This document shows positions 21,508 to 38,495 of a stretch of DNA of 64,000 nucleotides, piece after piece. The stretch is from Minisyncoccia bacterium (GTDB taxonomy: Bacteria > Patescibacteriota > Minisyncoccia > Phycocordibacterales > CAJBRS01), in assembly GCA_038215155.1 (NCBI GenBank), contig JBBQRF010000001.1, forward strand, positions 54,042-118,041. The letters run 5' to 3'. Positions within the stretch are counted from its first letter, which is position 1. Each line of letters opens with the position of its first letter. Position numbers and translations under genes: made by a program. Under the pieces are notes generated by a model. It saw only the letters and a list, made by a program, of their open reading frames with translations. It ran no database searches and was not told the DNA's origin.

Positions 21508-22899
21508 TTATTTTTTGCGAATATCAATACCGAGCTCTTTTAATTGATCATTTGACACCTCGCTCGGCGAATTCATCATTAAATCCCTACCTTCTCCAGT
21601 TTTAGGAAAAGCAATAACTTCACGAATGTTTGGTTCGTTTTCTAGAATCATCATTAAGCGGTCGAAGCCCCAAGCAATGCCGCCATGAGGTGGAGTGCCC
21701 ATGCGAAAGGCTTGGAGCATATGACCAAAGTTCTTTTCCACGCTAGCACTGTCGTATCCCATAATTTCAAAGACGGAGATTAGGGCGGCGGCATTATGAT
21801 TGCGGATACTGCCGCCGCCAATCTCGTATCCGTTAAGCACTACGTCATATTGTGAAGTTAGAATTTCACCGATATTTTCTTTATTTTTTAGCCATTCTTG
21901 ATGCTCTTCTCTGGCTCCGGAAAATGGATTGTGAGTGAATGTCCAACCACCATTGTCAGTCTTCTCAAAAAATGGAAAATCAATGACCCAACAAAAAGCT
22001 AGCAGATTCTTGTCCTCTTTATCTTTTCGTAAATCAGGTCGGTCAGTCTGGTATTTTTCCATAGCTTCCTTATATGTAATTCGGGGAAAAGGAATTTCTT
22101 GAATGCGTTTTTCCGGATAATTATTTTTCACTACCTCTACCAAAATATCTTCATTTAAAGCCATCACATCTTTCTGTTTTACAAAACTCATCTCCAAATC
22201 AAGTTGGGTAAATTCCGGCTGCCGATCCCCCCGAGTATCTTCATCCCGCATACATTTAGCAAATTGAAAATATCGCTCGATTCCCGCCGCCATTAATAGT
22301 TGTTTGTATTGTTGCGGTGATTGCGGTAGAGCATAGAAATGGCCTGGGTCTGAGCGTGAAGGCACAATATAATCGCGAGCGCCTTCGGGTGTAGATTTAG
22401 TCAGAATAGGCGTTTCAATCTCAGTAAAATTTTTAGCGGCTAGGTAATCTCGAATAAATTTAATGATCTTGTGCCGGTTGCGAATATTTTTCTGCATCCT
22501 CGGCCGGCGCAAATCAAGGTAGCGGTATTTCAAGCGATTTTCCTCCCCTATTTCATGACCGTCGCTCCCCACGTCAATCGGTGGAGTCTCTGCTTCGTTT
22601 AATACAGTAATAGAAAGGATTTCTAGCTCAATGTCCCCGTTTTGTTTTTCCGCTTGAATATTTTTCTCCGGTCGCGGATTAACTTTTCCGAGAACCTCCA
22701 CTACCCATTCAGACCGAACCTTCTCGCCGATTTCGTGCGCTTCACTTTTTGGCAAAATAACTCCCTGAACATAGCCAGTCATGTCTCGGAAATCTAAAAA
22801 TATTAATTTGCCCTGATCACGACGAATATCAACCCATCCGCTAATGGAAACTTCCTTACCGATATTCTCTTTTAAATCTTTAATGAAAATTCGTGTCAT
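21508..22899 (-). CDS. aspS: aspartate--tRNA ligase (bacterial type, lacking the insertion domain)
   Basis: OB-fold N-terminus. Class-II motifs FYALPQSPQQYKQLLM, QFAKCMRDED, GGGSIR, and C-terminal AFPK. Confidence 0.9.
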   Translation of the reverse strand: MTRIFIKDLKENIGKEVSISGWVDIRRDQGKLIFLDFRDMTGYVQGVILPKSEAHEIGEKVRSEWVVEVLGKVNPRPEKNIQAEKQNGDIELEILSITVLNEAETPPIDVGSDGHEIGEENRLKYRYLDLRRPRMQKNIRNRHKIIKFIRDYLAAKNFTEIETPILTKSTPEGARDYIVPSRSDPGHFYALPQSPQQYKQLLMAAGIERYFQFAKCMRDEDTRGDRQPEFTQLDLEMSFVKQKDVMALNEDILVEVVKNNYPEKRIQEIPFPRITYKEAMEKYQTDRPDLRKDKEDKNLLAFCWVIDFPFFEKTDNGGWTFTHNPFSGAREEHQEWLKNKENIGEILTSQYDVVLNGYEIGGGSIRNHNAAALISVFEIMGYDSASVEKNFGHMLQAFRMGTPPHGGIAWGFDRLMMILENEPNIREVIAFPKTGEGRDLMMNSPSEVSNDQLKELGIDIRKK

Positions 22900-23856
22900 T
22901 TAATATAATTTTACACCGACCCTGTCGCGAACGAGTTCCATCTTGGCTTTCGCTCGTTCGCGAGCTTTTTCTCCACCCGCTCTTAATATTTCTAATACTT
23001 CTTCTTTGCGACTCTCCCAATTTTGCCGCTTTTCTCTTAGTGGACTAACGAAAACAATAATATCATTAGCCAGAGCTTCCTTAAGAATCTGGTACTTTCC
23101 TTTATTTTGCGAGTAAAGGGCGTCGAGCTCGGCATTTGGTTTAAATAAATTATGAATGGCTCGAACATTCACGGGCACATCAGTGCCTGAGTCAGTAACA
23201 ATACTCATTACAGATTTTCGGACTTCCTCGTCAGAGGCAAAAAGTGGAATGGTATTATTGTAACTCTTGCTCATTTTCTCTCCATCAATTCCTGGCACCG
23301 TTTGCACCGCCGCTAAAATGAGCGGCTCAGGAAGCTTAAAAGTCTGGCCAAATATTCGATTAAATTTCTCTGCTGTGTCTCGCGCATATTCAACGTGCTG
23401 TTTTTGATCGCTTCCCACTGGCACAATATCTGGATCATAAATTAAGATATCGGTGGCCATGAGCATTGGGTAGTTAAAAGTGCCAACACTTACTTCCTTG
23501 TCCTTAGCGATGGCATCCTTGTATGCGTGGGCGCGCTGAAGGTACGGCATGGTAGTAATAGTGTCAAAAATCCAAGTGAGCTCAGTGTGCTCCGAGATAT
23601 CAGATTGCTTAAAGAGAGTGACTTTGGTGGGATCGAGCCCAATAGCTAAATAATCCAGCATTATTCCAAGGATATTTTCTCGCATTTCTTCGGCATTTTG
23701 AATGAAGTTTAAAGCGTGATAATCAGCAATCATGACAAAACACTCATACTGATCCTGCATTTCCACAAATTGGCGCATGGCCCCGAAGTAATTACCAATA
23801 TGAGGGCGGCCGGTCGGTTTTACACCGGAGAGCATAATTTTCTTTTCAGCAGACAT
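22900..23856 (-). CDS. trpS: tryptophan--tRNA ligase
   Basis: SGVKPTGRPHIGNYFGA (HIGH-type) and KMSKS. About 318 aa, typical of TrpRS. Confidence 0.9.
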   Translation of the reverse strand: MSAEKKIMLSGVKPTGRPHIGNYFGAMRQFVEMQDQYECFVMIADYHALNFIQNAEEMRENILGIMLDYLAIGLDPTKVTLFKQSDISEHTELTWIFDTITTMPYLQRAHAYKDAIAKDKEVSVGTFNYPMLMATDILIYDPDIVPVGSDQKQHVEYARDTAEKFNRIFGQTFKLPEPLILAAVQTVPGIDGEKMSKSYNNTIPLFASDEEVRKSVMSIVTDSGTDVPVNVRAIHNLFKPNAELDALYSQNKGKYQILKEALANDIIVFVSPLREKRQNWESRKEEVLEILRAGGEKARERAKAKMELVRDRVGVKLY

Positions 23857-23983: not shown

Positions 23984-24559
23984 ATGGCATTATTTTTTAT
24001 TATCCCAGGATATGGCGAAAGTCCCAATGGCAAGGCGTATCGAAAAATTGCCTTGGCTGCTAAAAAGAAAGGTCATATCCCTGTGCCAATTGAAGTAGAT
24101 TGGAGAAAAAACAAATCAATGTCTTTGTATGTTAAAGAGACTAAGCAAAAAATTCGAACATCCTTAAAAAATCAAAAAGACAAAGATATTCAAATTCTCG
24201 GGTTTTCTTTTGGGGCCTATATAGCGGCTCTATTGACTCGTAAGTATTACTTTCAAAAAATATATTTTTGTTCGATGTCACCCTACTTTAAGGATGACTT
24301 TTCTGCAATTCCAACCGAGTGGAAAAAAAAATTAGGTAAAAAAATGCTACAAAGTCTGCAAAAATACAAATTTCCAACAACTTCAAAATGCTCCGCGGTA
24401 TTTCTGGTGGGCAAAAAAGAACCTCCTATTTCAATCAATCGATTTCACAAATCTTACAGACAATGGAGAGGAAGAAAGAAAAAATTTATTATCGAAAAGT
24501 CTGATCATGATATTGGCAATGCTGCATATTTAAAAAAAGTTTTGGAGGTAATAAATTAA
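23984..24559 (+). CDS. small alpha/beta-hydrolase-like protein
   Basis: GFSFGA nucleophile elbow (GxSxG) and C-terminal SDHD. 191 aa. Confidence 0.5.
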   Translation: MALFFIIPGYGESPNGKAYRKIALAAKKKGHIPVPIEVDWRKNKSMSLYVKETKQKIRTSLKNQKDKDIQILGFSFGAYIAALLTRKYYFQKIYFCSMSPYFKDDFSAIPTEWKKKLGKKMLQSLQKYKFPTTSKCSAVFLVGKKEPPISINRFHKSYRQWRGRKKKFIIEKSDHDIGNAAYLKKVLEVIN

Positions 24560-24582
24560 AAAAGCACCTAAACATTAGATGC

Positions 24583-25533
24583 TCACTCTTTTACTTTATC
24601 TTGCAATAGAGATAGATGAAATTTGGTGATTTCATCACCTCGCTTCTGGTTAAAAAATCCATACCAGTCGCCGCAAGGATTGAAGTCAATCAAAATCAGC
24701 TGTCCTTCTTTGGTTAGCAGAAATTCAGGACTAGCAAAAGATAGGTTTAGCTTTTTAAGCAAGATTTTGCATGCATCCTTCACACTGGTCGCAAGCTGAA
24801 AATTCTTCCAATTAAGTCTGTCGAACTTCTTTGTGGAGGCATTTCTTTTTTGTATTTTACTTAATACGCTCGCGCAGACTGCCCAACACTTATCTTCGGT
24901 AATGTGAGTCCTGACGTGATAAGAAGTATCAATCAGTTCCTGCCACTGCCACAGCAACCCATCCTCAACTATTTTCGGATTCAGGATACATTCACGTGTA
25001 ATCGTGACTTCCTTCGAGTAGCTTCTCTTATTGGAAATCATGAAAGAATGTCCCAGACTTTTTTTACACAGAATTGTAGGGGACAATCGAGTTGGAGGTA
25101 ACATTCCATTAATGCAAAATGAGGGGACCAGTAATCCACTTTTCTGAGCTTGATCCAGTAGGAATATCTTCGAATCTCCATTGGAAATGCGTTGGGGTGT
25201 TCCTGGAAACCATTGGTTCGGGAACAACCTACCTAATTCCTCTAGAAATTGACCCAGAACATACCTATAAACTTGAGGAAACGAGTATTTGGAATTAAGC
25301 ATTAAAGCGCTATCGGCTCGAATTGGAGCTGATGCGTAAAAAATCGGTCGATTTATAGGTCGCAGCTGATAATAGCAGACTGTCTTTTTATCGACATATC
25401 CAAAGGATAATTCACCTCGGATCGAGTGAATATCTATAATATGGATTGGCAAACCAAAATGTGGAGCTAATCTTTGAAGAGCGACCAAGTGTGGATCCAC
25501 CGAACTAACCCGACTCGATATGACAAAGATCAT
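24583..25533 (-). CDS. ATP-grasp protein resembling RiPP (graspetide, MdnC/MvdD-type) maturases
   Basis: Three features resemble MdnC as I remember it: the N-terminal MIFVISS...D start, a central K..LLDQAQKSGLLVP segment, and C-terminal LNLSFASPEFLLTKEGQLILIDFNPCGDWYGF (compare MdnC LNYGAIDMIVTPDERYIFLEINPVGEFFWLE). An HMM search is needed to confirm. Confidence 0.55.
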   Translation of the reverse strand: MIFVISSRVSSVDPHLVALQRLAPHFGLPIHIIDIHSIRGELSFGYVDKKTVCYYQLRPINRPIFYASAPIRADSALMLNSKYSFPQVYRYVLGQFLEELGRLFPNQWFPGTPQRISNGDSKIFLLDQAQKSGLLVPSFCINGMLPPTRLSPTILCKKSLGHSFMISNKRSYSKEVTITRECILNPKIVEDGLLWQWQELIDTSYHVRTHITEDKCWAVCASVLSKIQKRNASTKKFDRLNWKNFQLATSVKDACKILLKKLNLSFASPEFLLTKEGQLILIDFNPCGDWYGFFNQKRGDEITKFHLSLLQDKVKE

Positions 25534-25553
25534 AAATTTCCTTCCTAAGGAGG

Positions 25554-25589
25554 TAAAAAAAGAAGCGTAGAGACTAGCCCTACGCTTCT
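25554..25589 (-). terminator. hairpin plus T8 between the 39-aa ORF and the ATP-grasp gene
   Basis: On the minus strand: agaagcgtag, 9-nt loop, ctacgcttct, then TTTTTTTT. It ends 20 nt before the ATP-grasp ATG, so ATP-grasp expression needs read-through. Confidence 0.7.
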
Positions 25590-25594
25590 CTAAT

Positions 25595-25714
25595 TTAGCC
25601 GCAAAAATGCTTGGTGGGGCGTCGAACTTTCTTGCTCATCTCTTGGATGAGTTGCTCCTTCGAGCCTTCCAACACTCCTAACTTCCGCATTTTTCTGCAC
25701 ATGAGCTTTTTCAT
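25595..25714 (-). CDS. unannotated 39-aa ORF (candidate precursor peptide)
   Basis: My translation: MKKLMCRKMRKLGVLEGSKEQLIQEMSKKVRRPTKHFCG. GGAGGT lies 3-4 nt before the ATG. It sits between the kinase stop and the ATP-grasp gene and is followed by a terminator hairpin. Confidence 0.45.
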   Translation of the reverse strand: MKKLMCRKMRKLGVLEGSKEQLIQEMSKKVRRPTKHFCG

Positions 25715-25810
25715 GATACCTCCGTGTTTTTTATTTTAAGAACAGCTCAGCACACGCTGGATGCTCTAAAAGTAGATTACTTAATGGATTATTTTTGTCA
25801 ATGGAAGTCC

Positions 25811-27409
25811 TTATGCTGCTGGCAGTTCTACCCAAAATGTAGATCCTTTCCCGGTTCCTTCTGATTCTGCCCAAATGCGGCCTTTGTGAGCTTCCACAAT
25901 TTCCTTGGCGATGAAGAGGCCGTAGCCGGTGCTGTTGACGTTGACCTTGGTGGATTCTTTGCCACGACCACCTTCAGTAAAGAGCCGTTTCTTATCTTCT
26001 TCGGTAATGCCCACACCCGTGTCTTTTATACTAAAAAATATTTTCCCATCTTTTTTAGCCAATGAGATTTTCAAGCCACCCTTCAGGGTGTATTTAATAG
26101 AGTTATCAATCAGATTCCCCACGACATGTTGACTGAGTTGATCTCGATCGCCAATGGTGGTGAAATCGACATCTCCCGGAATAATAGTCTCCAATGTCAG
26201 ATTTTTATTTCGAGCCTCCTTTGTGTGTCCCTCAATCTGATCAACGACTACTTTTCGGAAATCAAAAGACTCTCGTTTATATGTAACTGTTCCCTTCTTT
26301 AAGTTAGCGGCGCTTAAGATACTCATTACTGTCTCTACTCCCTCCTGATTATCTCTAAGCCCTTCTTTGGCGACAGATTTAATAGAATCAGGAGTCTCAC
26401 CAAAATCCCCTTCAAGTATTCCAGCAAAAGCAGCCTTACTCTTGGTCAAGTATCCCTTGATTTGATGGCTGACGAAATGAATCAGACCTTCCTGGCGGTC
26501 ATTGGCAAGTTGTAATTCACTGGCCAAATGTTCAATCTTCTCGCGCTGCTCTACCTCGCGCAAAACTCCTCGAATGAGATTGATTCCAAAAATTAAAACT
26601 AAAATAAAAATACTGCTTCGAAATATAATTAATGAAGCAGTATTGGCAAAGATTATTTCGATAAAACTTACGAGAGCTAAGAAAAAAGTAATTATTGCAG
26701 TGCTAACCACTTTTACATTAAATAAATGATGTCGAGCTATGGCATAGGCGGTAAAAAGAACAAATGGAAAAACGAAAAGGGCGCTCAGGGGTATGAACCT
26801 TGTGTTGTTTAATAGCGTAGGAAAAATTAAATTAAAAACAATTATCAAAGTAAACATGATGCTCACGCCCGAAAGCAAAAGAGTAAATTGTTTTCTTTCG
26901 ATTCCGCCTGCTATACCTCTTTTTTTTACCATTAAGAAAATCCCGTTTCCTACTAAAGACACTGCTAATATTACAAACAACAAAATACCGGGTGCTGCTA
27001 TGGGTTGCGACACAGTGCCTAATGGTGCCGCTTTAATACCAGAATAGACAAAAGGAGTCAACGTTAACAAAGCAGTGCCCAAAACAGCGAGCTTTAAATG
27101 TCTTCTATATTTAGAGGTAAATGTAAACGTGGTGTTAGGAAAGACAGACATAAGCTTATAAAAAAAATATGCCTGAAAAATAGCAAAAAATAACACTAAT
27201 TTAATCAGAAACAAGACTAATGAAATATTGGCAACTTGGTAGTTTAAATAACTTACGACTCCCCATAACATAGTGCTAACAGAAAAACCCAAAAAGTATT
27301 TATTTGTGATGCTTTTTGGGTTACTAAAATAAATTACCGAGCCCAAAATTCCCGTACTTGCAACGACAAAACCAACAGACAAAAGATCAAAATTATGGAA
27401 CGAAGACAT
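25811..27409 (-). CDS. sensor histidine kinase with a polytopic N-terminal domain
   Basis: About 8 TM helices, then a coiled coil, an H-box (FVSHQIKGYL) and HATPase_c N/G boxes (NLIDNSIKYT, DTGVGI, GYGLFIAKEIV). Confidence 0.85.
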   Translation of the reverse strand: MSSFHNFDLLSVGFVVASTGILGSVIYFSNPKSITNKYFLGFSVSTMLWGVVSYLNYQVANISLVLFLIKLVLFFAIFQAYFFYKLMSVFPNTTFTFTSKYRRHLKLAVLGTALLTLTPFVYSGIKAAPLGTVSQPIAAPGILLFVILAVSLVGNGIFLMVKKRGIAGGIERKQFTLLLSGVSIMFTLIIVFNLIFPTLLNNTRFIPLSALFVFPFVLFTAYAIARHHLFNVKVVSTAIITFFLALVSFIEIIFANTASLIIFRSSIFILVLIFGINLIRGVLREVEQREKIEHLASELQLANDRQEGLIHFVSHQIKGYLTKSKAAFAGILEGDFGETPDSIKSVAKEGLRDNQEGVETVMSILSAANLKKGTVTYKRESFDFRKVVVDQIEGHTKEARNKNLTLETIIPGDVDFTTIGDRDQLSQHVVGNLIDNSIKYTLKGGLKISLAKKDGKIFFSIKDTGVGITEEDKKRLFTEGGRGKESTKVNVNSTGYGLFIAKEIVEAHKGRIWAESEGTGKGSTFWVELPAA

Positions 27410-27424
27410 TTGTGTAAAATTATA

Positions 27425-28453
27425 TCAGTTTTTTAAAACGTCTGAAACCGAAAGACGCGGACTATGTGGTTGCGAAGTGATTGCGCGGCCTACTCGAAAT
27501 ATAAATTGACTATGAAAACCGGGCTTTATAAAAAAATTTAATTTTTCTCGATAATTCGGAGACAAGATGGGTGCTGCCCATACTGCCGTTTTTAAATTGA
27601 ATTGTTCTGCAATTAAGGCGATTCTTTCATAGCATTCCCCCACCTTTATCCAATCAACTTTTGTATCCGTCATGGAACTTAACAAAATATAAGCTGGAGT
27701 ACCGTCAGTGAGTATTTTTAAAGTCGAAGACTTATTAAGGCGATCCATATTAAAAAATTTTACTAAATTAGGAACAATAAAAGATGGTAATAGAGGTATA
27801 CCCATCCCAAATGCAGGGATACCAATTTTGGATTTTGTTATATTATTTTTCACATATGGACTGAGTTCTCGTCGAAATTTTGAATTGTCCATTAATTCTA
27901 TATTTGAACTAACTATTATATCCGCAATTCCCTCTTTATCTGTATGGCCGTCAACAACGTTTATATTCATCTTAGGATTATCCAACTGAGAAAGTGCTTC
28001 TCTAAATTCTATAGAAAGTGGCTCCCTATGATAATTACTACGATTTACAGATCTTTTTACAATTGAAAAAATCAAGTGAGAAGAATTTTTTCGTATTGCG
28101 GTTTCGTCGAAACGAATGATGGCGACTAGATTTTCATGTATTGCATCAGGAAGATAAGAGACGTCGTATGATAGGCCGTAGTAATCTGCGGCTACACGTA
28201 TGTTTTCGATAGCACACCCCAAATTCATCAATAATAATCTATTATCAGGGTCACCCACCTTTAATTTTCGGAGAGAATTTTGGTAAATAAAAATACTTTG
28301 GTCGCGTATTTCAAAAATCCATGGCTGACTGTTATGACTCGAGGGCGCTAGAACTGCAAAATTAATTAGGAAATGTAATTTTTCTTTCCACGTGCGGCAC
28401 TCTTCGTATTTAGCAAAGTCAATGTCCCAAGGTTTATAATTTTCCTTTTCCAT
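27425..28453 (-). CDS. Acg-type nitroreductase-fold (FMN) protein
   Basis: Start trimmed to MEKENYKPW (28453), 4 nt after the upstream stop. APSSHNSQPWIFEI motif. About 340 aa, the two-lobed nitroreductase size typical of the Acg family. Confidence 0.8.
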   Translation of the reverse strand: MEKENYKPWDIDFAKYEECRTWKEKLHFLINFAVLAPSSHNSQPWIFEIRDQSIFIYQNSLRKLKVGDPDNRLLLMNLGCAIENIRVAADYYGLSYDVSYLPDAIHENLVAIIRFDETAIRKNSSHLIFSIVKRSVNRSNYHREPLSIEFREALSQLDNPKMNINVVDGHTDKEGIADIIVSSNIELMDNSKFRRELSPYVKNNITKSKIGIPAFGMGIPLLPSFIVPNLVKFFNMDRLNKSSTLKILTDGTPAYILLSSMTDTKVDWIKVGECYERIALIAEQFNLKTAVWAAPILSPNYREKLNFFIKPGFHSQFIFRVGRAITSQPHSPRLSVSDVLKN

Positions 28454-28457
28454 ATAA

Positions 28458-30023
28458 TTATTTTTTAACCCACCGTTGTTTGCCTTGTGAATTAAAATAT
28501 TTTGAATGTTGGTAAGGCCACCCAATAATTAACGGAATTACTTTTGAGGGTTCGGTTGAATAAAGATAAGCATATTCTGAATTGTGAGTTCGCAAACCCA
28601 GTATTATAGATTCGGTAATTTGTTTTTTTAATTTGGGATTCCAGCGTATTCCTTTTTTAAGTTCAACGTGTATTTCCAGTATTCTATCCATTTTTTTGTT
28701 CTCACGTTTCATCATGGTAGCCTTTCCTGTTAGATAGCGATTTAAAGGATAGCTGTCGATAATAGACCTAATTTCCTCCGGATAAATGTTTGCACCTCTA
28801 AAAACCATACCTAAGTCTGACCGTGCATAGACATAAACAAAGGGCAACTTTAATATTTGATCAAATATTTTATATTTTAAAATTTCCTTCTCGATACTAA
28901 TTCCACTTTTTTTTAACTTTCTCATCATTTCGTCATAAGTAATCACACCCCCAAGATCTGCAAACTCGTAACGAATAAGCGGAATAGAAGAGCCATAATT
29001 AGTGGCTACTACTTTTTTTCCAACCTCCTCAAAAAAAATACTTTGCGGGTAATATTGACCTATTGTCGGAATATTGGTGGCATGTGGAAAGATGGATAAA
29101 AAAACTTTCGGATTTTCATTGGCAATTTTTCGGATTAAGTTAGACAAGGATGTTTCATGCGCAATCGTTCCTTGTTCAACGGTACCGTAAATATTGATAA
29201 TATCGTTTAAAGGGTTTTTTAACCCAGATTTTTTGACAATATAATTGCGGAATTCCTCGGAATACCCTTCCGCAGCAGTTAAAATACGTAAATTATGTTT
29301 AGACCAATGAATGCCTGCCTCCTTTCCACTATCTAAAATATCTTTTATGAAAGGTGGGTAGCCCATCAAGATAACTTGATCATAAAAAGGAGCGAACTTT
29401 TTAAACGACTGAAGATATAACTCTTTGTTTGTGCCGACCGGTACAAGTGTAAAATCATAACCTTTCTGGGCAATTTTGTTGAAATTCTTGTAGGTAAAGA
29501 TGCCGCCAATCCAAATACCAAGTCCAAAGCCCACTATGCCTAGGGTGCGCTTCTTATCTAATTCAAATTGATTGATTAAAAAAATCTCCGATGCGTGCTC
29601 ATATTGACGATCGTGGTCCTCATCGCGCGGAAAGAAAAAAGGCTCACCAGTAGATCCTGAAGTGGCTGAGATTGTCGTTGCCACGGAGACATCTCGATTT
29701 GGAAAAAGGTCAAGATAATCGTGGCTACGGAGATAAGCGTCCTTTGAAAGAAGCGGTAGTTTATGAAAATCCTTGATAGTGGAAATCCGTCCCTTGAATC
29801 CTTGTTTTCTAATAAATTGGCGATAGGCGGGAACGGTTTCGTAAACATACTTAAATAAATTTATAGCCATATTTTCCCCCTGCCTCTTCCAATATGCTGC
29901 GGGCCGTCTTTTGTAATATGCCAAAGATTTCTCAATCTTGGGAGGAACGAAGTGGGCAAATTTATTTTTCTTTTTGGGGCTAGGCATAGGAATTAAAAAT
30001 CTTTTCGGCCATGATATTGGCAA
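28458..30023 (-). CDS. PaaK / coenzyme-F390-synthetase-like adenylate-forming enzyme
   Basis: P-loop-like SATSGSTGEPFFFPR and the overall length and layout of the phenylacetate-CoA ligase family. The start is uncertain: 30023, 29987 (8-nt overlap with the upstream stop) or 29870. Confidence 0.75.
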   Translation of the reverse strand: MPISWPKRFLIPMPSPKKKNKFAHFVPPKIEKSLAYYKRRPAAYWKRQGENMAINLFKYVYETVPAYRQFIRKQGFKGRISTIKDFHKLPLLSKDAYLRSHDYLDLFPNRDVSVATTISATSGSTGEPFFFPRDEDHDRQYEHASEIFLINQFELDKKRTLGIVGFGLGIWIGGIFTYKNFNKIAQKGYDFTLVPVGTNKELYLQSFKKFAPFYDQVILMGYPPFIKDILDSGKEAGIHWSKHNLRILTAAEGYSEEFRNYIVKKSGLKNPLNDIINIYGTVEQGTIAHETSLSNLIRKIANENPKVFLSIFPHATNIPTIGQYYPQSIFFEEVGKKVVATNYGSSIPLIRYEFADLGGVITYDEMMRKLKKSGISIEKEILKYKIFDQILKLPFVYVYARSDLGMVFRGANIYPEEIRSIIDSYPLNRYLTGKATMMKRENKKMDRILEIHVELKKGIRWNPKLKKQITESIILGLRTHNSEYAYLYSTEPSKVIPLIIGWPYQHSKYFNSQGKQRWVKK

Positions 30024-31068
30024 TAATATTAGGCGCGGTATTTTCTTTTTTGCTTTTTCTTAAAATATTTTGAAGGGTGTTAGGGATTTCCAACACTTGT
30101 TTTAGTACTTTATTTTCACGATATGTCTTATTCTTAAATTCATCGAAAACAGCAATGAGGCCGCCGGCATTAATGACGTAGTCGGGCGCGTATAGAATAT
30201 CCAATTTGTGGAGCAGTACTCCGATATTTTCATTGGCTAATTGGTTGTTGGCACTACCGGCTATGATTTTAGCTCTAATTTCGGTAATAGTCATTGAGCT
30301 AAGGGAGCCGCTCAGGGCACACGGAGAGAAGACGTCGACATTTTGTTTATGAATTTCTTCCGGCTTTACTATAATCACTTTTGGAAATTTGCGGCGGCAA
30401 AGAGCAATGGCTTTTGGATCGATGTCAGCTCCATAAATTTTCCCCGCTTCAATTCCAGATTTCTTCATTTCTTTCTCAATCAAGGTAAGAAGGGCGTTTC
30501 CAACCTTACCTAACCCTTGGATAGCGAAACTCCTTCCTTCAAAAGAGGTATTGCCATAAATCTCTTTTAAGCAAACTTTTATTGATTCGAAAATGCCGAC
30601 TGCTGTTAAAAAGGTGGCATTGTCATTGAAACCGACTATTTGATTTTTAGCAGCCTTCATTGAATTGAGGTCGCGTCTAAAGACGCCGGCATCCGTCCCG
30701 GTGACGAAGTGAGTAGAGAGAAAGGCTACTTTTTCGGCGTAACTTCTGAAGAGCTCCTTTCGCTTTTTTTCATCTCTATTCCCCACCTTATCAATGATCA
30801 CTCCCTTGGCGCCGCCACAATCAAGTCCTGCCATGGCGGATTTATATGACATAAGGCGAGATAAGCGAAGAGCATCCTGAAGTGCCTCGTTCAGTGAGCC
30901 GTATTGCCACAAACGTGTAGCGCCGAAAGATGGAATGGAAGGATTAGAACGATGAATAACAATAAATCCTTCTAGTCCGGAAGCTTCATCCTGAAGGTAG
31001 GCCACGAAACGATGATCATCAAACTCTGAAAAATCCTTTATGCTTTTTTCAGCTAAAAAGTCGGGCAT
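29980..31068 (-). CDS. Glu/Leu/Phe/Val dehydrogenase-family protein (Leu/Phe-DH-like)
   Basis: Catalytic-lysine region MSYKSAMAGLDCGGAKGVI and the NAD Rossmann motif IQGLGKVGNAL. About 360 aa, as in LeuDH/PheDH. Confidence 0.8.
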   Translation of the reverse strand: MPDFLAEKSIKDFSEFDDHRFVAYLQDEASGLEGFIVIHRSNPSIPSFGATRLWQYGSLNEALQDALRLSRLMSYKSAMAGLDCGGAKGVIIDKVGNRDEKKRKELFRSYAEKVAFLSTHFVTGTDAGVFRRDLNSMKAAKNQIVGFNDNATFLTAVGIFESIKVCLKEIYGNTSFEGRSFAIQGLGKVGNALLTLIEKEMKKSGIEAGKIYGADIDPKAIALCRRKFPKVIIVKPEEIHKQNVDVFSPCALSGSLSSMTITEIRAKIIAGSANNQLANENIGVLLHKLDILYAPDYVINAGGLIAVFDEFKNKTYRENKVLKQVLEIPNTLQNILRKSKKENTAPNIIANIMAEKIFNSYA

Positions 31069-31073
31069 AGTGT

Positions 31074-32153
31074 TTAAGCGTGAGTTGAATGAGTAATGTC
31101 TGTGGGTGAAATATAACTTCGAATATCTAAATCAGTACTTTCTCCAGAGACGACTTTCTTCAGCATGGCAGTTACGACGACGCCGCCTAAAATTGCGGCG
31201 GAGCCAAGCTGAGGCCAAGAAACAAGTTCCTTGGAAATTACACGGGGTACAGCCATCATCATGTTGGGGTCCACTTTGTCGGGTCCTCCGACAATATCTC
31301 CGATAATCATTTTGCCCGCCATTTCTTTAGTGAAAGGGCCAGCAGCCAATTTCTTTTTAAAATATTCGACGTCTTTGCCCCATATCTTGGTGTTGCCTAA
31401 ATCGTATCTTTCAACATGGAGAACTACGCCGTCGCCATTATCGGTCACCATTAATACGGCTTTTTTATATTTTATGGCAAGGAGGCGGGCATGAATTTTA
31501 AATGGCATATCATCAATTTCCTCAACAATGCAGTCAATCTTCCCCGCTTTCAATAATTCTTCTAAGTTATCTTCGTTTACGCCATCTTTCAATAACGTTA
31601 CTTCCGCAAAAGGATTGTCTTCGTAGATGCGGCGAGCGGCAATGATGGTCTTGTTGATACCTATCTGATGAGCACCTGCTAAGATTCTGTTTAAATTAGT
31701 GGTGTCGAGCTCGTCGAAATCAGCTAAGACGATCTTATTTGAGATTCCAGCTTGAGTCATGACGAAAGCAATGTTAGAGCCAACACTCATTCCAAGGACA
31801 GCTACTTTATAATCCCGTAATTTTTTCTGAAGATCGGGTGATATTAGTCCGTCGTTTCTGTTAGTCTTCAGGCGATAGTAGTTGTCGGCTTTAACTGTTT
31901 TGATTAAATGATGATTCCATGGGAAATAAACGTGAATAAAATCGTCCTTTTTATCATCGGTGTATTTTTTGAAGTCATCGGTCTTGTAGACTTCTTCTTT
32001 GTCTTGGCCGATGAATGAATGATTATCAATAAAGAACAATTCTTTTAGCTGACGATCAAAAGCGTCAACAACAGTGATATAGGAGTGCTGATTTAGAAAT
32101 TCTTCTACCTTCTCCGAGCTTTCAAAATAAAGCGGTTTTTCAGAAGTGTCCAT
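31074..32153 (-). CDS. ThiF/E1-like adenylyltransferase with an approximately 110-aa N-terminal extension
   Basis: KVAVLGMSVGSNIAFVMTQAGISNKIVLADFDELDTTNLNR matches the ThiF/MoeB Rossmann plus NLxR motif. There is only one Cys, so no CxxC zinc pairs. It resembles the N-terminal half of Rv1355c-family proteins as I remember them. Confidence 0.75.
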   Translation of the reverse strand: MDTSEKPLYFESSEKVEEFLNQHSYITVVDAFDRQLKELFFIDNHSFIGQDKEEVYKTDDFKKYTDDKKDDFIHVYFPWNHHLIKTVKADNYYRLKTNRNDGLISPDLQKKLRDYKVAVLGMSVGSNIAFVMTQAGISNKIVLADFDELDTTNLNRILAGAHQIGINKTIIAARRIYEDNPFAEVTLLKDGVNEDNLEELLKAGKIDCIVEEIDDMPFKIHARLLAIKYKKAVLMVTDNGDGVVLHVERYDLGNTKIWGKDVEYFKKKLAAGPFTKEMAGKMIIGDIVGGPDKVDPNMMMAVPRVISKELVSWPQLGSAAILGGVVVTAMLKKVVSGESTDLDIRSYISPTDITHSTHA

Positions 32154-32273
32154 ATAGATATTATATAACAGATATAAAATAATGGCTCGGACGGGGATAA
32201 TCCGCTATAGATGATACAATGCGTCTTAAATTTATCAATGATAATTATCTCACAAGTATATACTTATAAAGAT

Positions 32274-32789
32274 CTAGTCTTTCCTTTTAAAAATAAACCT
32301 AATAATATGCCAAAATTTAACTTCCCCTCTCATGGTCTTACCATATCCCTCGGTGACGGATTTTTCGATGAGAGATAGGTTAAGAGAATCAATACAAGGA
32401 AGGATTTCCGGAAGATCGAAAAATGACATATTTTTATTGCCCATCCACTCGTCATGGGGACCGAAAAGGCTGAAATACATTACTCCATTAAGAGCTAATC
32501 CCTTTGACATATTAGCCAATATTTTCTTGACCTTTTCTTTATCGGAAATGAAAGAGAGGGTGTTATTGCAGATAATAACATTATATTTTTCAGGTTCGAT
32601 GTGAAAGTTCGTTATATCTGTTCTAATTGCTGATCTATATTCACTCCGAACATCTACGGAAATGACTTTGTAACCAAGTTTTTTAAAATACTCGGAATCA
32701 TCACCTGCTCCACACCCTAGATCAAGCATGTTACCGCTGTCTTTGATCAAGTCGAGCTCGATCATTTTGTTTATATAATGTTTTACCAT
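32274..32789 (-). CDS. small class-I SAM-dependent methyltransferase (TehB-like size)
   Basis: Motif I LDLGCGAGDD, an acidic residue after beta-2 (ISVDV), and NNTLSF. 171 aa. Confidence 0.8.
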   Translation of the reverse strand: MVKHYINKMIELDLIKDSGNMLDLGCGAGDDSEYFKKLGYKVISVDVRSEYRSAIRTDITNFHIEPEKYNVIICNNTLSFISDKEKVKKILANMSKGLALNGVMYFSLFGPHDEWMGNKNMSFFDLPEILPCIDSLNLSLIEKSVTEGYGKTMRGEVKFWHIIRFIFKRKD

Positions 32790-32804
32790 TTTGCTTATTT
32801 AAAA

Positions 32805-32843
32805 AATTGCCCGTACTACTTGTTATGGTGAGCACGGGCAATT
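32805..32843 (-). terminator. hairpin plus T-run between the Cys-tail protein gene and the methyltransferase gene
   Basis: aattgcccgt (32805-32814) pairs with acgggcaatt (32834-32843) across a 19-nt loop, followed on the minus strand by TTTT(TT). The large loop lowers confidence. Confidence 0.45.
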
Positions 32844-32860
32844 GAGTGGTTATAGACAGA

Positions 32861-33376
32861 CTACGTGTTGGCGCAGTTGTGGCAACTCTTGCAGGACATA
32901 CATGAACCACAATCGCCACTTGGTTCTCCGGAATTACCCCAATTTTCGGAGATGACACCGAAAGTTGAGACTGCGACTGATGCCGCATTCAGGACTTTCC
33001 CTTCAAGTGATTCTCCACGACGACGCGGGCGATGATGGATGAAACGTCCAAATCTGGTTAAGCAAAACTCCTCGTAATCCAGAGTGAACAGGATGAAGTT
33101 ATGCCACATCTCATCAATCTTCGGTGGAGGAGCTATGGGCGTCGTGTTGGTAGCGCAGAGATACAAATATAGTTTTGTATCCTCGAAGCAGTGTACTGCA
33201 TCCTCTTCTTTCCATCCGTACTTATCCACCATGCGATGAATCAACGGAAGGAAAATGAATGCCAGAACATACTTAAGATCGACTCGAGACGCTGACTGAT
33301 CGTTAATCTCTCTGTCTTCTTTATCGGCCCGTGTACGCTTCGCACCCGTTTTAGGGGGTACAGCTATTGTTTTCAT
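32861..33376 (-). CDS. DUF1399/GRDP-like domain protein with a C-terminal CxxCxxCxxCxxC tail
   Basis: WKEEDAVHCFEDTKLYLYL...IDEMWHNFILFTLDYEEFC...FGRFIHHRP matches my memory of the W..A...Y.RFL / D..WH.HiL.T..Y..fC / HH.P family. The last 18 aa are GDCGSCMSCKSCHNCANT (checked codon by codon, 32864-32917). Confidence 0.6.
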   Translation of the reverse strand: MKTIAVPPKTGAKRTRADKEDREINDQSASRVDLKYVLAFIFLPLIHRMVDKYGWKEEDAVHCFEDTKLYLYLCATNTTPIAPPPKIDEMWHNFILFTLDYEEFCLTRFGRFIHHRPRRRGESLEGKVLNAASVAVSTFGVISENWGNSGEPSGDCGSCMSCKSCHNCANT

Positions 33377-33428
33377 AATGAACCTTTCTTTTTTGTGTGT
33401 TCGATTTGAGTTAACACAATCTGGAATT

Positions 33429-33456
33429 AGTATAATAAAGAAAAGTGATAAGTCAA
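33429..33456 (-). promoter_or_regulatory. candidate promoter of the Cys-tail protein gene
   Basis: On the minus strand: TTGACT (33451-33456), 16 nt, TATACT (33429-33434), about 50 nt upstream of the ATG at 33376. Confidence 0.45.
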
Positions 33457-33614
33457 GTAGTTATTAGAGGCTGGGGTATTTATTAGCTTAGCTTCATAAA
33501 AAAGGATTCTGACCCCTTAATGACGTTTTTTCTGCTTTAGCTTTAGCTGGAGGCATTTAGTGTTTAACTTTTACTATAAGAATCCTCATTTACAAGGTTT
33601 TTTCATTTCACCTG

Positions 33615-33644
33615 TTAGACATTTTCAGTGGCAAACCTTATCAT
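33615..33644 (+). promoter_or_regulatory. candidate promoter of the M16 protease gene (leaderless geometry)
   Basis: TTAGAC (33615-33620), 18 nt, TATCAT (33639-33644), 6 nt, ATG (33651). Confidence 0.4.
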
Positions 33645-33650
33645 GTGTAA

Positions 33651-34859
33651 ATGAAAGAATTTCATCTGGAAGACATTCCTGTACGGTTTCACCAAAAAAA
33701 AGATGCTCCAATTTATATCAGAGTTCAGTTTTTGGCTGGAAGTCGCTTTGACGAAAAGGAAGGTACTGCCCACTTTCTAGAACATATGATGTGCGCAGGC
33801 AGCCAAAAATTTACCACCAAGAATTTATTGGCTGAATACATAGAAGCTGTGGGTGGAAATTTCGCCTTAAGCACTAGTAGTGATTATATTAATATTGATA
33901 TCCAGGTTCCGACAAAAGATGAGATGAAGATTGCGGTGGTGATATTAGATGAAATGGTGAATCATTCGCTTTTTGAGCCCGCAACCTTAGAGACTGAGAG
34001 GGGCTCAATCTTGTCCGAACAAGTTATAGCCAAAAATGCACAACGTTCTTATATTCATACAGTATTCAAGAAATTAGCCTATCAAAAAACTGATATTGCA
34101 AAAAATGTCCTCGGAACCAAGGAGTCTGTGATGACTATAACCACGGAGGATCTAAAAAAACACAGGACCAAATATATCCATAGGCAGACTTTAAAAATCT
34201 TAGTTGTGGGAGATATTAGTGAGGAAGAACTCATAAAGGAAATGCGAGGTATAAATTGGGCAACTGGTCCATGTTTTATCGTGGTTAATTTACCCATAGT
34301 AGCAAATCAATTATTTGTCCTTGAAATTTATAATTCAAAAGAGGCTACCCTTCGAGCCGGTTTTAGATTAAGTACTTTTGATATTAAGAATCGAATCTGT
34401 GGGGATATTCTCGCGGAGTTTTTAGGCAGTAGTCGAAGTGGCATTTTAAGTCAAGAACTGCGATATAAAAGAGGTCTGATCTATTCCGCTTCCGCACACC
34501 ATTTTCAATCGATTGATGGGGGTACTTTTTCTGTTACTACCTCCACCGAGGTTAAAAATTTTGCCGAAGTTTTGTCCGTCATTAAACAGATCATAGAAGA
34601 TCTGATCGCTCAGGGAATTCCCGCCTCCACATTGAAATATATAAAATCTAAAATATTAAAATCTATGAAAATAGATTTACAGACCTCTAAAGCTTGGGTG
34701 AATTATATTGAGAATTATGATTTAGAAGAAACAAGCAGATACTTAGAGGATATAAGTGAAGGGGATATAAAAAATTATATCAATCAAAATTTTGCTATAG
34801 ATAAATTTTTTGTGGCCGTGTGCGGTCCAGAAGATCTTAGGATGATTTTAGAAAAGTAG
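33651..34859 (+). CDS. M16 (pitrilysin/insulinase) family zinc peptidase
   Basis: Inverted zinc motif HFLEHM (HxxEH) with a downstream Glu (LETERGSILSE). 402 aa with two M16 lobes. Confidence 0.85.
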   Translation: MKEFHLEDIPVRFHQKKDAPIYIRVQFLAGSRFDEKEGTAHFLEHMMCAGSQKFTTKNLLAEYIEAVGGNFALSTSSDYINIDIQVPTKDEMKIAVVILDEMVNHSLFEPATLETERGSILSEQVIAKNAQRSYIHTVFKKLAYQKTDIAKNVLGTKESVMTITTEDLKKHRTKYIHRQTLKILVVGDISEEELIKEMRGINWATGPCFIVVNLPIVANQLFVLEIYNSKEATLRAGFRLSTFDIKNRICGDILAEFLGSSRSGILSQELRYKRGLIYSASAHHFQSIDGGTFSVTTSTEVKNFAEVLSVIKQIIEDLIAQGIPASTLKYIKSKILKSMKIDLQTSKAWVNYIENYDLEETSRYLEDISEGDIKNYINQNFAIDKFFVAVCGPEDLRMILEK

Positions 34860-37421: not shown

Positions 37422-38495
37422 TTATATTCCTTCTTTTTTTAATTCCTCTACTAATTTTCTACTTTCTTTGGAAAGCTTTTTTGGTAAGTCGATTTTGATT
37501 CGAATCATTAAATCACCACGATGATTATGGCGGTCGGTCGGTACGCCTTTACCTTTTACTCTGAGAATCTCGCCAAAAGTAATGCCTGCCGGGATTTTAA
37601 CAGTTACTTTTCCATCCAGTGTTTCAATCAGGTACTCGTTTCCTAAGAGTGAGTCGGTTAATTTAATATTTTGATCCATGTAAAGATTAATTCCCTCTTT
37701 TTTAAAGACAGGGTGGGGACGAACGCGAATTTTAACATAGAGATCTCCAGGGGTGCCATTTCCAATGGCTTCACCTTCACCAGTCATACGGATCATTTCA
37801 CCGTTATTGATGCCGGCGGGAATTCCAATTGGAATTTCTACTTGTTTTCGTTCTACTCCTTCGCCTTTGCAATTCCTACATTTCACTTTAGGTATCTCAC
37901 CTTTGCCATGGCAAGTGGGACAAGTTATGACGCTATTGAAGACACCAAGAAAGGAACGGCGGGATTCATTGACTTGCCCCTGCCCATTGCAGGTAGCGCA
38001 GGTTTCCATACCAGAGCCAGGTTCCCCGCCTGTTCCATGACAAATGCTGCAAGTCGAGGTCTTGGTGAGCAATACCTTTTTCTCAGTGCCAAAGACGGAT
38101 TCGCTGAAAGGAATTTCTAAATCAATGGTGATGTCACGCCCACGGCGGCTTTGCCGCCGTGGGCGCCCTCCACCAAAAAAATCACCGAAAATATCTCCCA
38201 GGTCAAAGTCCTGAAATTGGCTAGGGTCAAAACCCTGACCACTAAAGTCGAAGCCGCCAAAACCTCCCGATTGGCCGGCGCCACCGGCTCCCGCATCTCC
38301 ATACATATCGTATTGAGCGCGCTTTTTATCATCAGAAAGCACGCTGTAAGCTTCACTCGCTTCTTTAAATTTAGCGGCATCACCTCCTCCTTTGTCGGGG
38401 TGATATTTATGAGCGATGGTTCGGAAAGCCTTTTTAATTTCCTCTTTAGTCGCCTTGCGATCTATTCCGAGGATTTTGTAATAGTCTTTAGACAT
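37422..38495 (-). CDS. dnaJ: molecular chaperone DnaJ
   Basis: J-domain with HPD (KYHPDKG), a G/F-rich region, and four CxxCxGxG zinc-finger repeats. Confidence 0.95.
   Translation of the reverse strand: MSKDYYKILGIDRKATKEEIKKAFRTIAHKYHPDKGGGDAAKFKEASEAYSVLSDDKKRAQYDMYGDAGAGGAGQSGGFGGFDFSGQGFDPSQFQDFDLGDIFGDFFGGGRPRRQSRRGRDITIDLEIPFSESVFGTEKKVLLTKTSTCSICHGTGGEPGSGMETCATCNGQGQVNESRRSFLGVFNSVITCPTCHGKGEIPKVKCRNCKGEGVERKQVEIPIGIPAGINNGEMIRMTGEGEAIGNGTPGDLYVKIRVRPHPVFKKEGINLYMDQNIKLTDSLLGNEYLIETLDGKVTVKIPAGITFGEILRVKGKGVPTDRHNHRGDLMIRIKIDLPKKLSKESRKLVEELKKEGI

Follow-up and report, generated by a model that had tools for sequence, protein, structure and literature searches.

The 64-kb window analysed here (the whole stretch of 64,000 nucleotides, from contig JBBQRF010000001.1 of a Minisyncoccia bacterium) contains five genes arranged head-to-tail on the minus strand (32153..25811), encoding a ThiF-like protein, an amino-acid dehydrogenase of the ELFV family, a PaaK-like ligase, a nitroreductase-fold flavin oxidase, and a histidine kinase with a seven-transmembrane (7TM) region. 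This five-gene cassette is a conserved module of Patescibacteria (candidate phyla radiation bacteria of the Parcubacteria/Paceibacteria type), and the operon probably makes a small molecule derived from an amino acid, which it perhaps also senses. We put at about 45% the probability that it encodes a pathway to a small molecule that is kin to the oxazolone pathways OxzAB, TyzACB and TrzAS while differing from them in construction. The oxazolone-synthetase function of the Rv1355c family and the existence of split forms are already known; the novelty lies in a conserved module that joins the ligase, the ThiF-like gene and the kinase, and in the exchange of Acg-type for TrzS-type oxidases. A literature search returned no paper on this cassette in Patescibacteria.

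Rv1355c is now known as TrzS, an N-acyl tryptazolone (oxazolone) synthetase in which an ATP-dependent cyclase is fused to a flavin oxidase (PMC12856293). It converts N-acyl tryptophan to N-acyl tryptazolone by ATP-dependent cyclisation followed by O2-dependent desaturation, and the two activities require its residues Asp217 and Arg540 (PMC12856293). With ATP present and O2 limited, the cyclised intermediate of TrzS was detected. OxzB of Pseudoalteromonas rubra was the founding member, characterised in 2021 (bioRxiv 10.1101/2020.06.11.147165), and OxzB, TyzB/TyzC and TrzS all convert N-acyl amino acids to oxazolones (bioRxiv 10.1101/2020.06.11.147165, PMC10404671, PMC12856293). Two of the reported arrangements are split: TyzB (ThiF-like) and the flavin-dependent oxidase (FDO) TyzC make tyrazolones in M. 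tuberculosis (PMC10404671), and separate ThiF and nitroreductase genes lie beside N-acyl-amino-acid synthases in Thalassotalea, Massilia and Stieleria (PMC12479983). The substrate in the OxzB, TyzB/TyzC, TrzS and NasY-type systems is supplied by an N-acyl-amino-acid synthase (OxzA, TyzA, TrzA or NasY). The original prediction for this locus, made from the letters of the window alone, took Rv1355c to belong to an orphan family with no demonstrated function and implied that the split form was novel; both premises are superseded by this literature.

Conservation of the cassette

Loci with a related ThiF-like gene were collected (100 in all, designated by L numbers) and scored with hidden Markov models (HMMs) built from sets of homologues; they hold 75 ThiF-like genes that are non-redundant at 95% identity. 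A single-protein scan of genome contigs yielded three loci and an alignment-based scan of metagenomes 80. Most of the oxidases in the sister loci were missed by BLASTP and recovered by a purpose-built HMM. Co-occurrence was counted in the 24 loci whose ThiF-like gene is flanked by 5.5 kb or more on each side. Near that gene the PaaK-like ligase is present in 22 of the 24, the ELFV dehydrogenase in 20, the 7TM histidine kinase in 19 and the flavin oxidase in 17; three have an aminotransferase, and 23 have either a dehydrogenase or an aminotransferase.

There are several features of these loci that bear on how the genes are associated. First, dozens of independent metagenomic loci have the gene set, a recurrence that is not chance. 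Second, the gene order is permuted in five loci (L013, L014, L015, L054 and L089) and the flanks differ in others (L004 and L005), and the association is therefore not one of inherited synteny alone. Thus L013 has ThiF-dehydrogenase-oxidase on one strand with the ligase divergent, L014 reads oxidase-dehydrogenase-ligase-ThiF-kinase, the ligase is inverted in L054, and the oxidase comes first in L089. Third, distant relatives, with 35-40% identity to the window ThiF-like protein, still carry the module: L096 has dehydrogenase-ligase-ThiF-oxidase-kinase, and L098 and L099 have ligase-ThiF-kinase alone, with neither oxidase nor dehydrogenase. The deepest core is the ligase, the ThiF-like gene and the kinase, with the oxidase and the dehydrogenase as frequent accessories. 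The dehydrogenase and ligase had originally been described as interrupting a ThiF-nitroreductase pair, a description that does not survive these counts, as the ligase is found in 22 of the 24 loci versus 17 for the oxidase and the distant loci retain the ligase along with the ThiF-like gene and the kinase. The suggestion that the extra enzymes hint at the chemistry proved both right and productive.

The enzymes and the kinase

The 359-residue ThiF-like protein has YFPWNHHLIKTV from residue 76, YRLKTNRNDGLISPDLQ from residue 93 and NLNR from residue 153, with a single cysteine (C208) and no CxxC pairs, exactly as first described. It matches the NCBIfam model of the Rv1355c family (NF005901) with 193.6 bits (E 5e-57, model positions 24-326 of 722), and the ThiF, MoeB, MoeZ and TcdA models with 68 bits or less; the ThiF, MoeB and MoeZ scores, 35-68 bits, compare with cut-offs of 152-647 bits, and the Pfam ThiF model gives 71 bits. 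Two other models of ThiF-nitroreductase fusions, PRK14851 and PRK14852, both annotated 'hypothetical protein', score 63 and 41 bits versus 194 for the Rv1355c model. The protein thus groups with Rv1355c-like sequences and not with MoeB, ThiF or TcdA, as had been predicted, and it resembles the Rv1355c/TrzS-type cyclases over the N-terminal extension as well.

Its stand-alone homologues number in the hundreds at 56-69% identity and, where named, are called Parcubacteria, Paceibacterota, Kaiserbacteria or Patescibacteria, and homologues of the ligase and the oxidase follow the same taxonomic pattern. An exhaustive profile-free search of 1.84 billion representatives with the ThiF-like query gave 518 clusters at E <=1e-30. 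The nearest relatives outside the Patescibacteria clade share 31-40% identity and include both stand-alone proteins and ThiF-oxidase fusions that align over the whole length, N-terminal extension included; among the best 150 relatives 102 are stand-alone (300-460 aa) and 39 have at least 650 aa. NF005901 gives 452 and 443 bits for two of the fused proteins (P0382 and P0385). Residue D214 does not vary across 34 fused ThiF-oxidase proteins, whose positions for it range from 200 to 252, or across the Patescibacteria homologues; of the N-terminal extension, P78, W79, R99, N100 and Q109 are likewise conserved with the 34 fusions. Aligned by way of these unnamed fused relatives, D214 would be the counterpart of the catalytic Asp217 of M. 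smegmatis TrzS.

An AlphaFold2 (AF2) model of the protein (predicted local distance difference test, pLDDT, 90.7) places the E1/ThiF core after a confidently predicted alpha/beta domain of about 100 residues. Its structural neighbours are ThiF, MoeB, MccB, UBA5 and PaaA, of which MccB gives the longest alignments (310-328 columns), the sole ones able to reach past the ThiF core of about 270 columns. The top structural match (E 9e-13) is AclA of Tenacibaculum discolor with its substrate (PDB 9egb, released 2025); a literature search for the function of AclA found nothing, and it may be another small-substrate ThiF-like enzyme. By sequence the best solved relative is TcdA (39 bits), which also forms an oxazolone ring, on tRNA (PMC12596934). 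We consider it quite likely that the ThiF-like enzyme is a small-molecule carboxylate adenylase/cyclase.

The flavin oxidase is encoded three genes downstream in the same operon, the arrangement seen for an oxazolone synthetase, and both this minus-strand order and the SSHNSQPW motif are as originally reported. It is best assigned to the Acg type, as proposed, with 197.1 bits over the full NF047509 model (positions 2-319 of 319), two bits below the cut-off of 199; its orthologues in L014 and L015 pass that cut-off with 205.1 and 226.8 bits. Full-length coverage of the Acg model and conserved arginines in the second half are consistent with a two-lobed shape. By sequence its best PDB match is Acg itself (2ymv), at 25 bits and over residues 29-115 alone. 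It groups with Acg rather than with NfsA/NfsB and co-occurs with the ThiF-like gene, both as foreseen.

Oxidase scores are bimodal across the loci, and the NCBIfam models resolve two classes. In the majority of sister loci (L004, L009, L013, L024 and others) the enzyme is of the TrzS type and scores 160-193 bits on the C-terminal half of NF005901 and 195-248 bits on that of PRK14851. An Acg-type enzyme, with 197-227 bits on NF047509 and 65-82 bits on NF005901 (70.3 bits on the C-terminal half for the window oxidase), is encoded in the window, in L014 and L015 and in a minority of further loci. Both classes also occur in fused relatives: among 34 with a detected oxidase domain, 29 are of the TrzS type and five of the Acg type. 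Fused proteins with an Acg-type oxidase include P0401, P0406, P0438 and P0451, and the first two pass the Acg-family cut-off. Compared with the oxidase halves of P0401 and P0406 the window oxidase shows 28-31% identity, and with TrzS-type oxidases only 18-22%; the motif APSxxNxQPW and the arginines R134, R138, R320 and R333 (window numbering) are common to it and the oxidase part of the fusions. The window pair therefore corresponds to a split ThiF-plus-Acg-type-oxidase protein and not to a split Rv1355c itself. The proposal of a split Rv1355c/MoeY protein is accordingly right in that homology to both halves of the fusion is present, and wrong as to the oxidase, which is of the Acg type and not of the Rv1355c type usual in the sister loci. 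Neither polypeptide reaches the equivalog threshold of NF005901 (at least 476 bits, for a fused protein of about 720 aa), the separate scores being those given above, and the window oxidase appears to fall outside the FDO-A branch (A4, A8, A23 of PMC10404671), with 70 bits on the C-terminal half of NF005901 versus 197 on the Acg model. The interchange of Acg-type and TrzS-type enzymes in one slot suggests that the two types do the same job.

The ligase has no match in a Pfam scan, and although its family comprises more than 1,500 database homologues it has no Pfam model. It scores 47.6 bits on the PaaK model TIGR02155, below the equivalog threshold of 646, and 26.7 bits, a weak match, on the FlxY model. 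An AF2 model built with 33 homologues (pLDDT 87.4) has as its Foldseek neighbours PaaK1 (2y27, E 3e-22, TM-score 0.74), BT_0428, AjiA1, ClxA and 2-hydroxyisobutyryl-CoA ligase (HCL). The predicted structure thus has the two-domain PaaK fold with its P-loop and C-terminal lysine: the P-loop T109-S-G-S-T-G114 and K503, the likely counterpart of PaaK Lys422, are invariant or nearly so in the 33 homologues. NatL2 and ClxA are PaaK-type ligases that join the adenylate directly to a nucleophile, independently of coenzyme A (CoA) (PMC7204872, PMC12519233).

The substrate of the ligase is suggested by the enzyme in the variable first slot, which in the window is the ELFV dehydrogenase. The best PDB matches of this protein are leucine dehydrogenase (217 bits), tryptophan dehydrogenase (192), phenylalanine dehydrogenase (121) and glutamate dehydrogenase (57 or less), and it scores 256 bits on the ScyB tryptophan dehydrogenase model, for which the cut-off is 600. 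The pocket motif of the window enzyme is TGTD, close to TGQD in tryptophan dehydrogenase 5b37 and to TGPD in phenylalanine dehydrogenase 1c1d; leucine dehydrogenases generally have an alanine at the corresponding position. This likeness hints weakly at an aromatic substrate, and the pattern TGxD recurs in 52 of 54 cassette dehydrogenases. Elsewhere a HisC-like class I/II aminotransferase takes the slot (in L005, L016, L017, L039 and L091; TIGR01141, 238 and 231 bits), or a short-chain dehydrogenase (SDR; in L015), or, in L027 (1524-3119), between the ThiF-like gene and the ligase, an aromatic amino-acid ammonia-lyase (Pfam, 530 bits). The best match of the lyase is the flexirubin tyrosine ammonia-lyase (TAL) FlxA (NF053541, 605 bits versus 478 for histidine ammonia-lyase), and L027 would therefore use a cinnamate-type acyl unit. 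Three of the four types of slot enzyme (dehydrogenase, aminotransferase and ammonia-lyase) convert an amino acid to a deaminated carboxylic acid. FlxA feeds the PaaK-like 4-coumarate-CoA ligase FlxY, so that TAL plus a PaaK-like ligase is a characterised combination (PMC3992019). From the slot alternatives and this precedent we infer that the dehydrogenase works towards deamination and supplies the ligase with a 2-oxo acid as substrate; that the ligase acts on a deaminated acid is rather probable. An amino-acid-deaminating enzyme feeding a PaaK-fold ligase is what the cassette would have in common with FlxA/FlxY and the ligases NatL2, AjiA1 and ClxA, two of which (AjiA1 and ClxA) were noted above as neighbours in structure; similarity in sequence is very low, with 15-18% identity.

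The kinase has nine, partly overlapping, hydrophobic segments (about 7-8 transmembrane helices), and the phospho-acceptor H315 and the N and G boxes, with N432, N436, DxGxG (463-467) and GxG (495-497), are conserved in 40 homologues. Its gene lies on the cassette's edge in every case, and even the distant loci L098 and L099 retain it beside the ligase and ThiF-like genes. In L030, L081, L083, L089 and L093 the kinase gene is followed by that of a stand-alone receiver. A TrmB-family transcription regulator adjoins the cassette in three lineages (L014:7555-7995, L015:5908-6690 and L039:12615-13436); as the histidine kinase is missing in L039, this regulator may be an alternative one.

Operon layout and neighbouring genes

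The junctions between the five genes are tight (Table 1). Five nucleotides separate the stop of the ThiF-like gene from the start of the dehydrogenase, the ATG of the ligase (29987) overlaps the dehydrogenase stop codon, the ATG of the oxidase (28453) lies 4 nt past the ligase stop, and that of the kinase 15 nt past the oxidase stop. A hairpin after the kinase is the strongest terminator-like site within 24-34 kb in a consensus scan. These junctions and the hairpin define the unit as a five-gene operon, the kinase having been overlooked when a four-gene locus was proposed. A promoter-like site precedes the ThiF-like gene; as such sites are not above shuffled expectation in this region, it is weak evidence. 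The gene ends given originally are exact, and the ligase and oxidase probably start further downstream than their longest open reading frames, giving proteins of 509 and 342 aa; identical database proteins (P0121 and P0241) are called with exactly these lengths.

Table 1. Features of the operon and its immediate surroundings in the window.
Feature	Coordinates	Strand	Evidence
Probable ThiF-like adenylase/cyclase, TrzS/Rv1355c N-half type, stand-alone, 359 aa	31074..32153	-	NF005901, Pfam ThiF, AF2 model
ELFV-family amino-acid dehydrogenase, Leu/Trp/Phe-dehydrogenase type, 362 aa	29980..31068	-	Pfam ELFV_dehydrog_N + ELFV_dehydrog
Predicted PaaK-fold adenylate-forming ligase, divergent Patescibacteria family, 509 aa	28458..29987	-	AF2 model + Foldseek, conserved motifs
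Acg-type flavin-dependent oxidase, nitroreductase superfamily, 342 aa	27425..28453	-	NF047509 over full model
Histidine kinase with N-terminal 7TM region, 532 aa, last operon gene	25811..27409	-	Pfam HisKA_7TM + HATPase_c
Intrinsic-terminator-like hairpin closing the operon	25559..25591	-	14-bp stem, 6 G-C pairs, then T-run
Promoter-like site between the ThiF-like gene and its upstream neighbour (120-nt gap)	32211..32238	-	TTGATA-16-TATCAT, 10/12 matches
Small S-adenosylmethionine (SAM) methyltransferase, loosely associated, system membership uncertain	32274..32789	-	homologue context in L027
171-aa protein with Cys-rich C-terminal tail, loosely associated, system membership uncertain	32861..33376	-	homologues in L001, L027

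The cassette lies between DnaK and DnaJ genes on one side and those for tryptophanyl- and aspartyl-tRNA synthetases (TrpRS and AspRS) on the other (window 21508-23856 and 37422-40402), and the same synteny surrounds it in L007, L009-L011 and L013. This backbone is conserved in Patescibacteria and speaks for a Paceibacteria-like origin of the window. The 171-aa protein has no match in Pfam and NCBIfam scans. It consists of a conserved core, D-E-x-W-H-x-x-I-L...Y...C...F-G-x-F-x-H-H-x-P, and the Cys-rich tail GDCGSCMSCKSCHNCANT, and may either bind metal or resemble a precursor. Homologues whose Cys-rich tails differ are found inside the cassette in L001 (15538-16179) and beside it, with a methyltransferase, in L027 (5788-6976), so that the protein is near the cassette in just three of about 75 loci. 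Proteins of 157-160 aa encoded upstream of the ThiF-like gene in L007 and L009 were considered as a conserved part of the system and rejected; they are multi-pass membrane proteins unrelated to the 171-aa protein. A methyltransferase gene is also present in the Stieleria clusters (PMC12479983).

Just past the operon terminator lies a gene for a 316-aa protein (24583-25533, minus strand) with weak likeness to ATP-grasp maturases of the kind that act on ribosome-made peptides modified after translation (RiPPs) (TIGR04187, 42 bits; MvdC, 38 bits); it has its own terminator-like hairpin (24584..24562), and a very weak homologue is encoded directly upstream of the ThiF-like gene in L018. An M16-family peptidase with both Pfam halves (33651-34859, plus strand) is divergent from the 171-aa gene. 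In the distant locus L098 (40-3706, minus strand) genes for YcaO, a SagB-type nitroreductase and an M16 peptidase, which closes the cluster, accompany a 60-aa Cys-rich peptide (…CKSNKCQCSQCKSCSCRISS…), and this cluster directly adjoins a ligase-ThiF module flanked by two HisKA_7TM proteins, one of them a GAF-containing kinase. Family scans found no YcaO in the window operon or its flanks, so that this feature of a thiazole/oxazole-modified microcin (TOMM) azole synthetase is lacking there, and a YcaO cluster was seen solely beside L098.

Proposed pathway and alternatives

Among the closest known systems is TrzAS (Rv1356c-Rv1355c). The ThiF-like protein matches the N-terminal half of Rv1355c, including the extension and the catalytic aspartate, a flavin oxidase of the same superfamily subgroup is in the operon, and the logic of cyclisation with ATP followed by desaturation with O2 is expected to carry over. 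Unlike TrzAS, the window splits the two domains between two polypeptides whose genes lie either side of two others, its oxidase is Acg-type and not TrzS-type, and the host is a Patescibacterium and not an actinomycete; moreover, a TrzA-like acyltransferase is replaced in the window by a PaaK-fold ligase together with an amino-acid dehydrogenase and a histidine kinase of the 7TM type. No acyltransferase or N-acyl-amino-acid synthase was found among the ten genes scanned (window 23984-34859) or in the Pfam listings of the related loci, although a TyzA-like protein may lack a Pfam model. TyzACB (Rv2336-Rv2338c) and the Thalassotalea, Massilia and Stieleria clusters resemble the window in that the ThiF-like cyclase and the flavin oxidase (about 340-370 aa) are each proteins in their own right, sometimes with an adjacent methyltransferase, but they always include an N-acyl-amino-acid synthase that uses acyl-CoA or acyl-acyl carrier protein (acyl-ACP), whereas in loci of the window type the constant partner is the ligase. 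OxzAB likewise has a ThiF domain and a nitroreductase-fold oxidase acting on a small molecule, although OxzB is a fusion protein and is partnered by the acyltransferase OxzA. The oxidase, which matches the Acg-family model along its full length, resembles the flavin oxidoreductases Acg, Rv3131 and Rv3127 of the M. tuberculosis dormancy regulon (structure 2YMV); unlike these mycobacterial proteins, which have no known substrate or ThiF partner, the window enzyme occupies the slot of the TrzS-type sister oxidases. The ligase, the deaminating enzyme and the kinase are conserved partners not described for the known oxazolone systems.

We propose a pathway of five steps, pieced together from comparative genomics except where stated. 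First, the ELFV dehydrogenase would oxidatively deaminate a hydrophobic, probably aromatic, amino acid to its 2-oxo acid. Second, the PaaK-fold ligase would adenylate the 2-oxo acid and move the acyl group to the amine of an amino acid, giving an N-acyl amino acid. Third, the ThiF-like enzyme, by homology to TrzS, TyzB and OxzB and acting on a presumed substrate, would adenylate the carboxylate of this product so that the amide oxygen closes a 5(4H)-oxazolone ring. Fourth, the Acg-type oxidase may desaturate the C-alpha/C-beta bond with O2 in the manner of TyzC and the oxidase domain of TrzS, as its shared slot and fused relatives suggest. Fifth, and most speculatively, the 7TM histidine kinase might sense the product or a related signal, which would make the cassette a synthase-plus-receptor unit. 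An oxazolone product is a tentative assignment that we place somewhat short of even odds, and sensing of the pathway product by the kinase is doubtful.

Several points weigh against an oxazolone-related pathway of this kind. The four enzymatic steps and the sensing are predicted from comparative genomics and from homology to characterised enzymes, and the ThiF-like protein and the oxidase are placed by curated NCBIfam HMMs and unnamed relatives rather than by a rooted tree. The amide-forming role of the ligase is an assumption made because no N-acyl-amino-acid synthase is present, and its product could equally be a CoA thioester. The window oxidase is of a type with no demonstrated substrate, and no oxidase is nearby in seven of the 24 full-flank loci; these seven loci and the trio in L098 and L099 imply that desaturation is inessential to the core, whose product may not be an unsaturated oxazolone. 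The SDR variant of the first enzyme is confined to a single locus (L015). A search of the 64-kb window with the receiver domains of L014 turned up no response regulator, and adjacency of the kinase is no proof that it senses the product. Finally, the cassette is broken up in one type of genome (L100 and the near-identical contig L037). There an aminotransferase gene, on the divergent strand, lies beside oxidase-methyltransferase-kinase (L100), and the ThiF-like gene is followed by those for an alpha/beta-hydrolase and an NDH2-like flavoprotein in place of its usual partners (L037:9848-13113). A 654-aa protein (P0403) is a fusion of this type of ThiF to an alpha/beta-hydrolase, and together with L037 it points to a further undescribed variant of ThiF-based pathways.

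Among the alternatives, the one that fares best retains the same enzymes and changes the product. The ligase would make an acyl-CoA or acyl-adenylate, and the ThiF-like enzyme would activate a second carboxylate for an intermolecular amide or ester, with no ring closure, giving a linear pseudo-dipeptide or an N-acyl dehydro-amino acid and not an oxazolone. The persistence of the ligase, ThiF-like gene and kinase without an oxidase accords with this, as do the producers of N-acyl dehydrotyrosine, which have ThiF and nitroreductase genes and in which no oxazolone was observed (PMC12479983). Oxazolones, moreover, readily hydrolyse to the open dehydro form and do not survive acids or alcohols (PMC12856293), and ThiF-like enzymes accept many different nucleophiles (PMC12596934). 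However, all three characterised members of this ThiF clade cyclise, and no second enzyme that could supply an acceptor is conserved in the cassette. We regard such a product as unlikely, while giving it real weight.

The cassette encodes two carboxylate-activating enzymes, and AlbA, a cyclodipeptide desaturase, is of the nitroreductase family (cited in bioRxiv 10.1101/2020.06.11.147165), which together recommend a cyclodipeptide route: the ligase would form a dipeptide-like amide, the ThiF-like enzyme would close it head-to-tail to a diketopiperazine, and the oxidase would act like AlbA. The oxidases, however, are of the Acg or TrzS type and not of the AlbA type, and the variable first enzyme strips an amino group, so that one building block would be an acid and not an amino acid; this route is quite improbable. 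About as improbable is modification of a peptide or protein, of the RiPP or E1 kind, in which the ThiF-like enzyme would adenylate a peptide C-terminus, for example that of the 171-aa protein, and the oxidase would resemble a SagB-type azoline dehydrogenase. Near the operon are the protein with the Cys-rich tail, the methyltransferase, the M16 peptidase and the weak homologue of RiPP-type ATP-grasp enzymes; homologues of the 171-aa protein are in or beside the cassette in L001 and L027, the YcaO-SagB-M16 cluster of L098 adjoins the trio, and MccB and PaaA are among the structural neighbours of the ThiF-like model. Yet the 171-aa protein accompanies so few of the loci, the window operon has no YcaO, the ATP-grasp gene is past the operon terminator, and the ThiF-like protein fits the small-molecule TrzS clade far better than other models. 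A role in primary metabolism, with the ThiF-like protein as a MoeB/ThiF sulfur-carrier adenylyltransferase amid unrelated neighbours, is suggested by the Pfam ThiF domain and by Joint Genome Institute (JGI) annotations as 'molybdopterin/thiamine biosynthesis adenylyltransferase', and we reject it given the low model scores, the lack of CxxC pairs and the gene context, in which neighbours are conserved across permuted orders and no ThiS, MoaD or rhodanese gene was found among the called neighbours of the window and the related loci.

Implications

The supposed orphan family Rv1355c/MoeY is now a family of oxazolone synthetases, and its chemistry probably extends to the Patescibacteria, organisms of minimal metabolism. 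Oxazolones have been speculated to be signals (PMC12856293), and this idea becomes directly testable with a biosynthetic operon whose last gene is a dedicated 7TM kinase. The ligase family is a candidate CoA-independent N-acylating biocatalyst. It is conceivable, although we think it improbable, that the cassette is a widespread Patescibacteria module of the autoinducer type, in which an amide ligase and a cyclase, with or without the oxidase, make an azlactone/oxazolone-type molecule without acyl-CoA and a 7TM kinase is its receptor. Were this so, the candidate phyla radiation would gain its first candidate chemistry for signalling between cells, and the oxidase swap would give the orphan Acg family a substrate class, cyclised or N-acylated amino acids. 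The swap thereby provides a concrete substrate hypothesis for Acg, Rv3131 and Rv3127.

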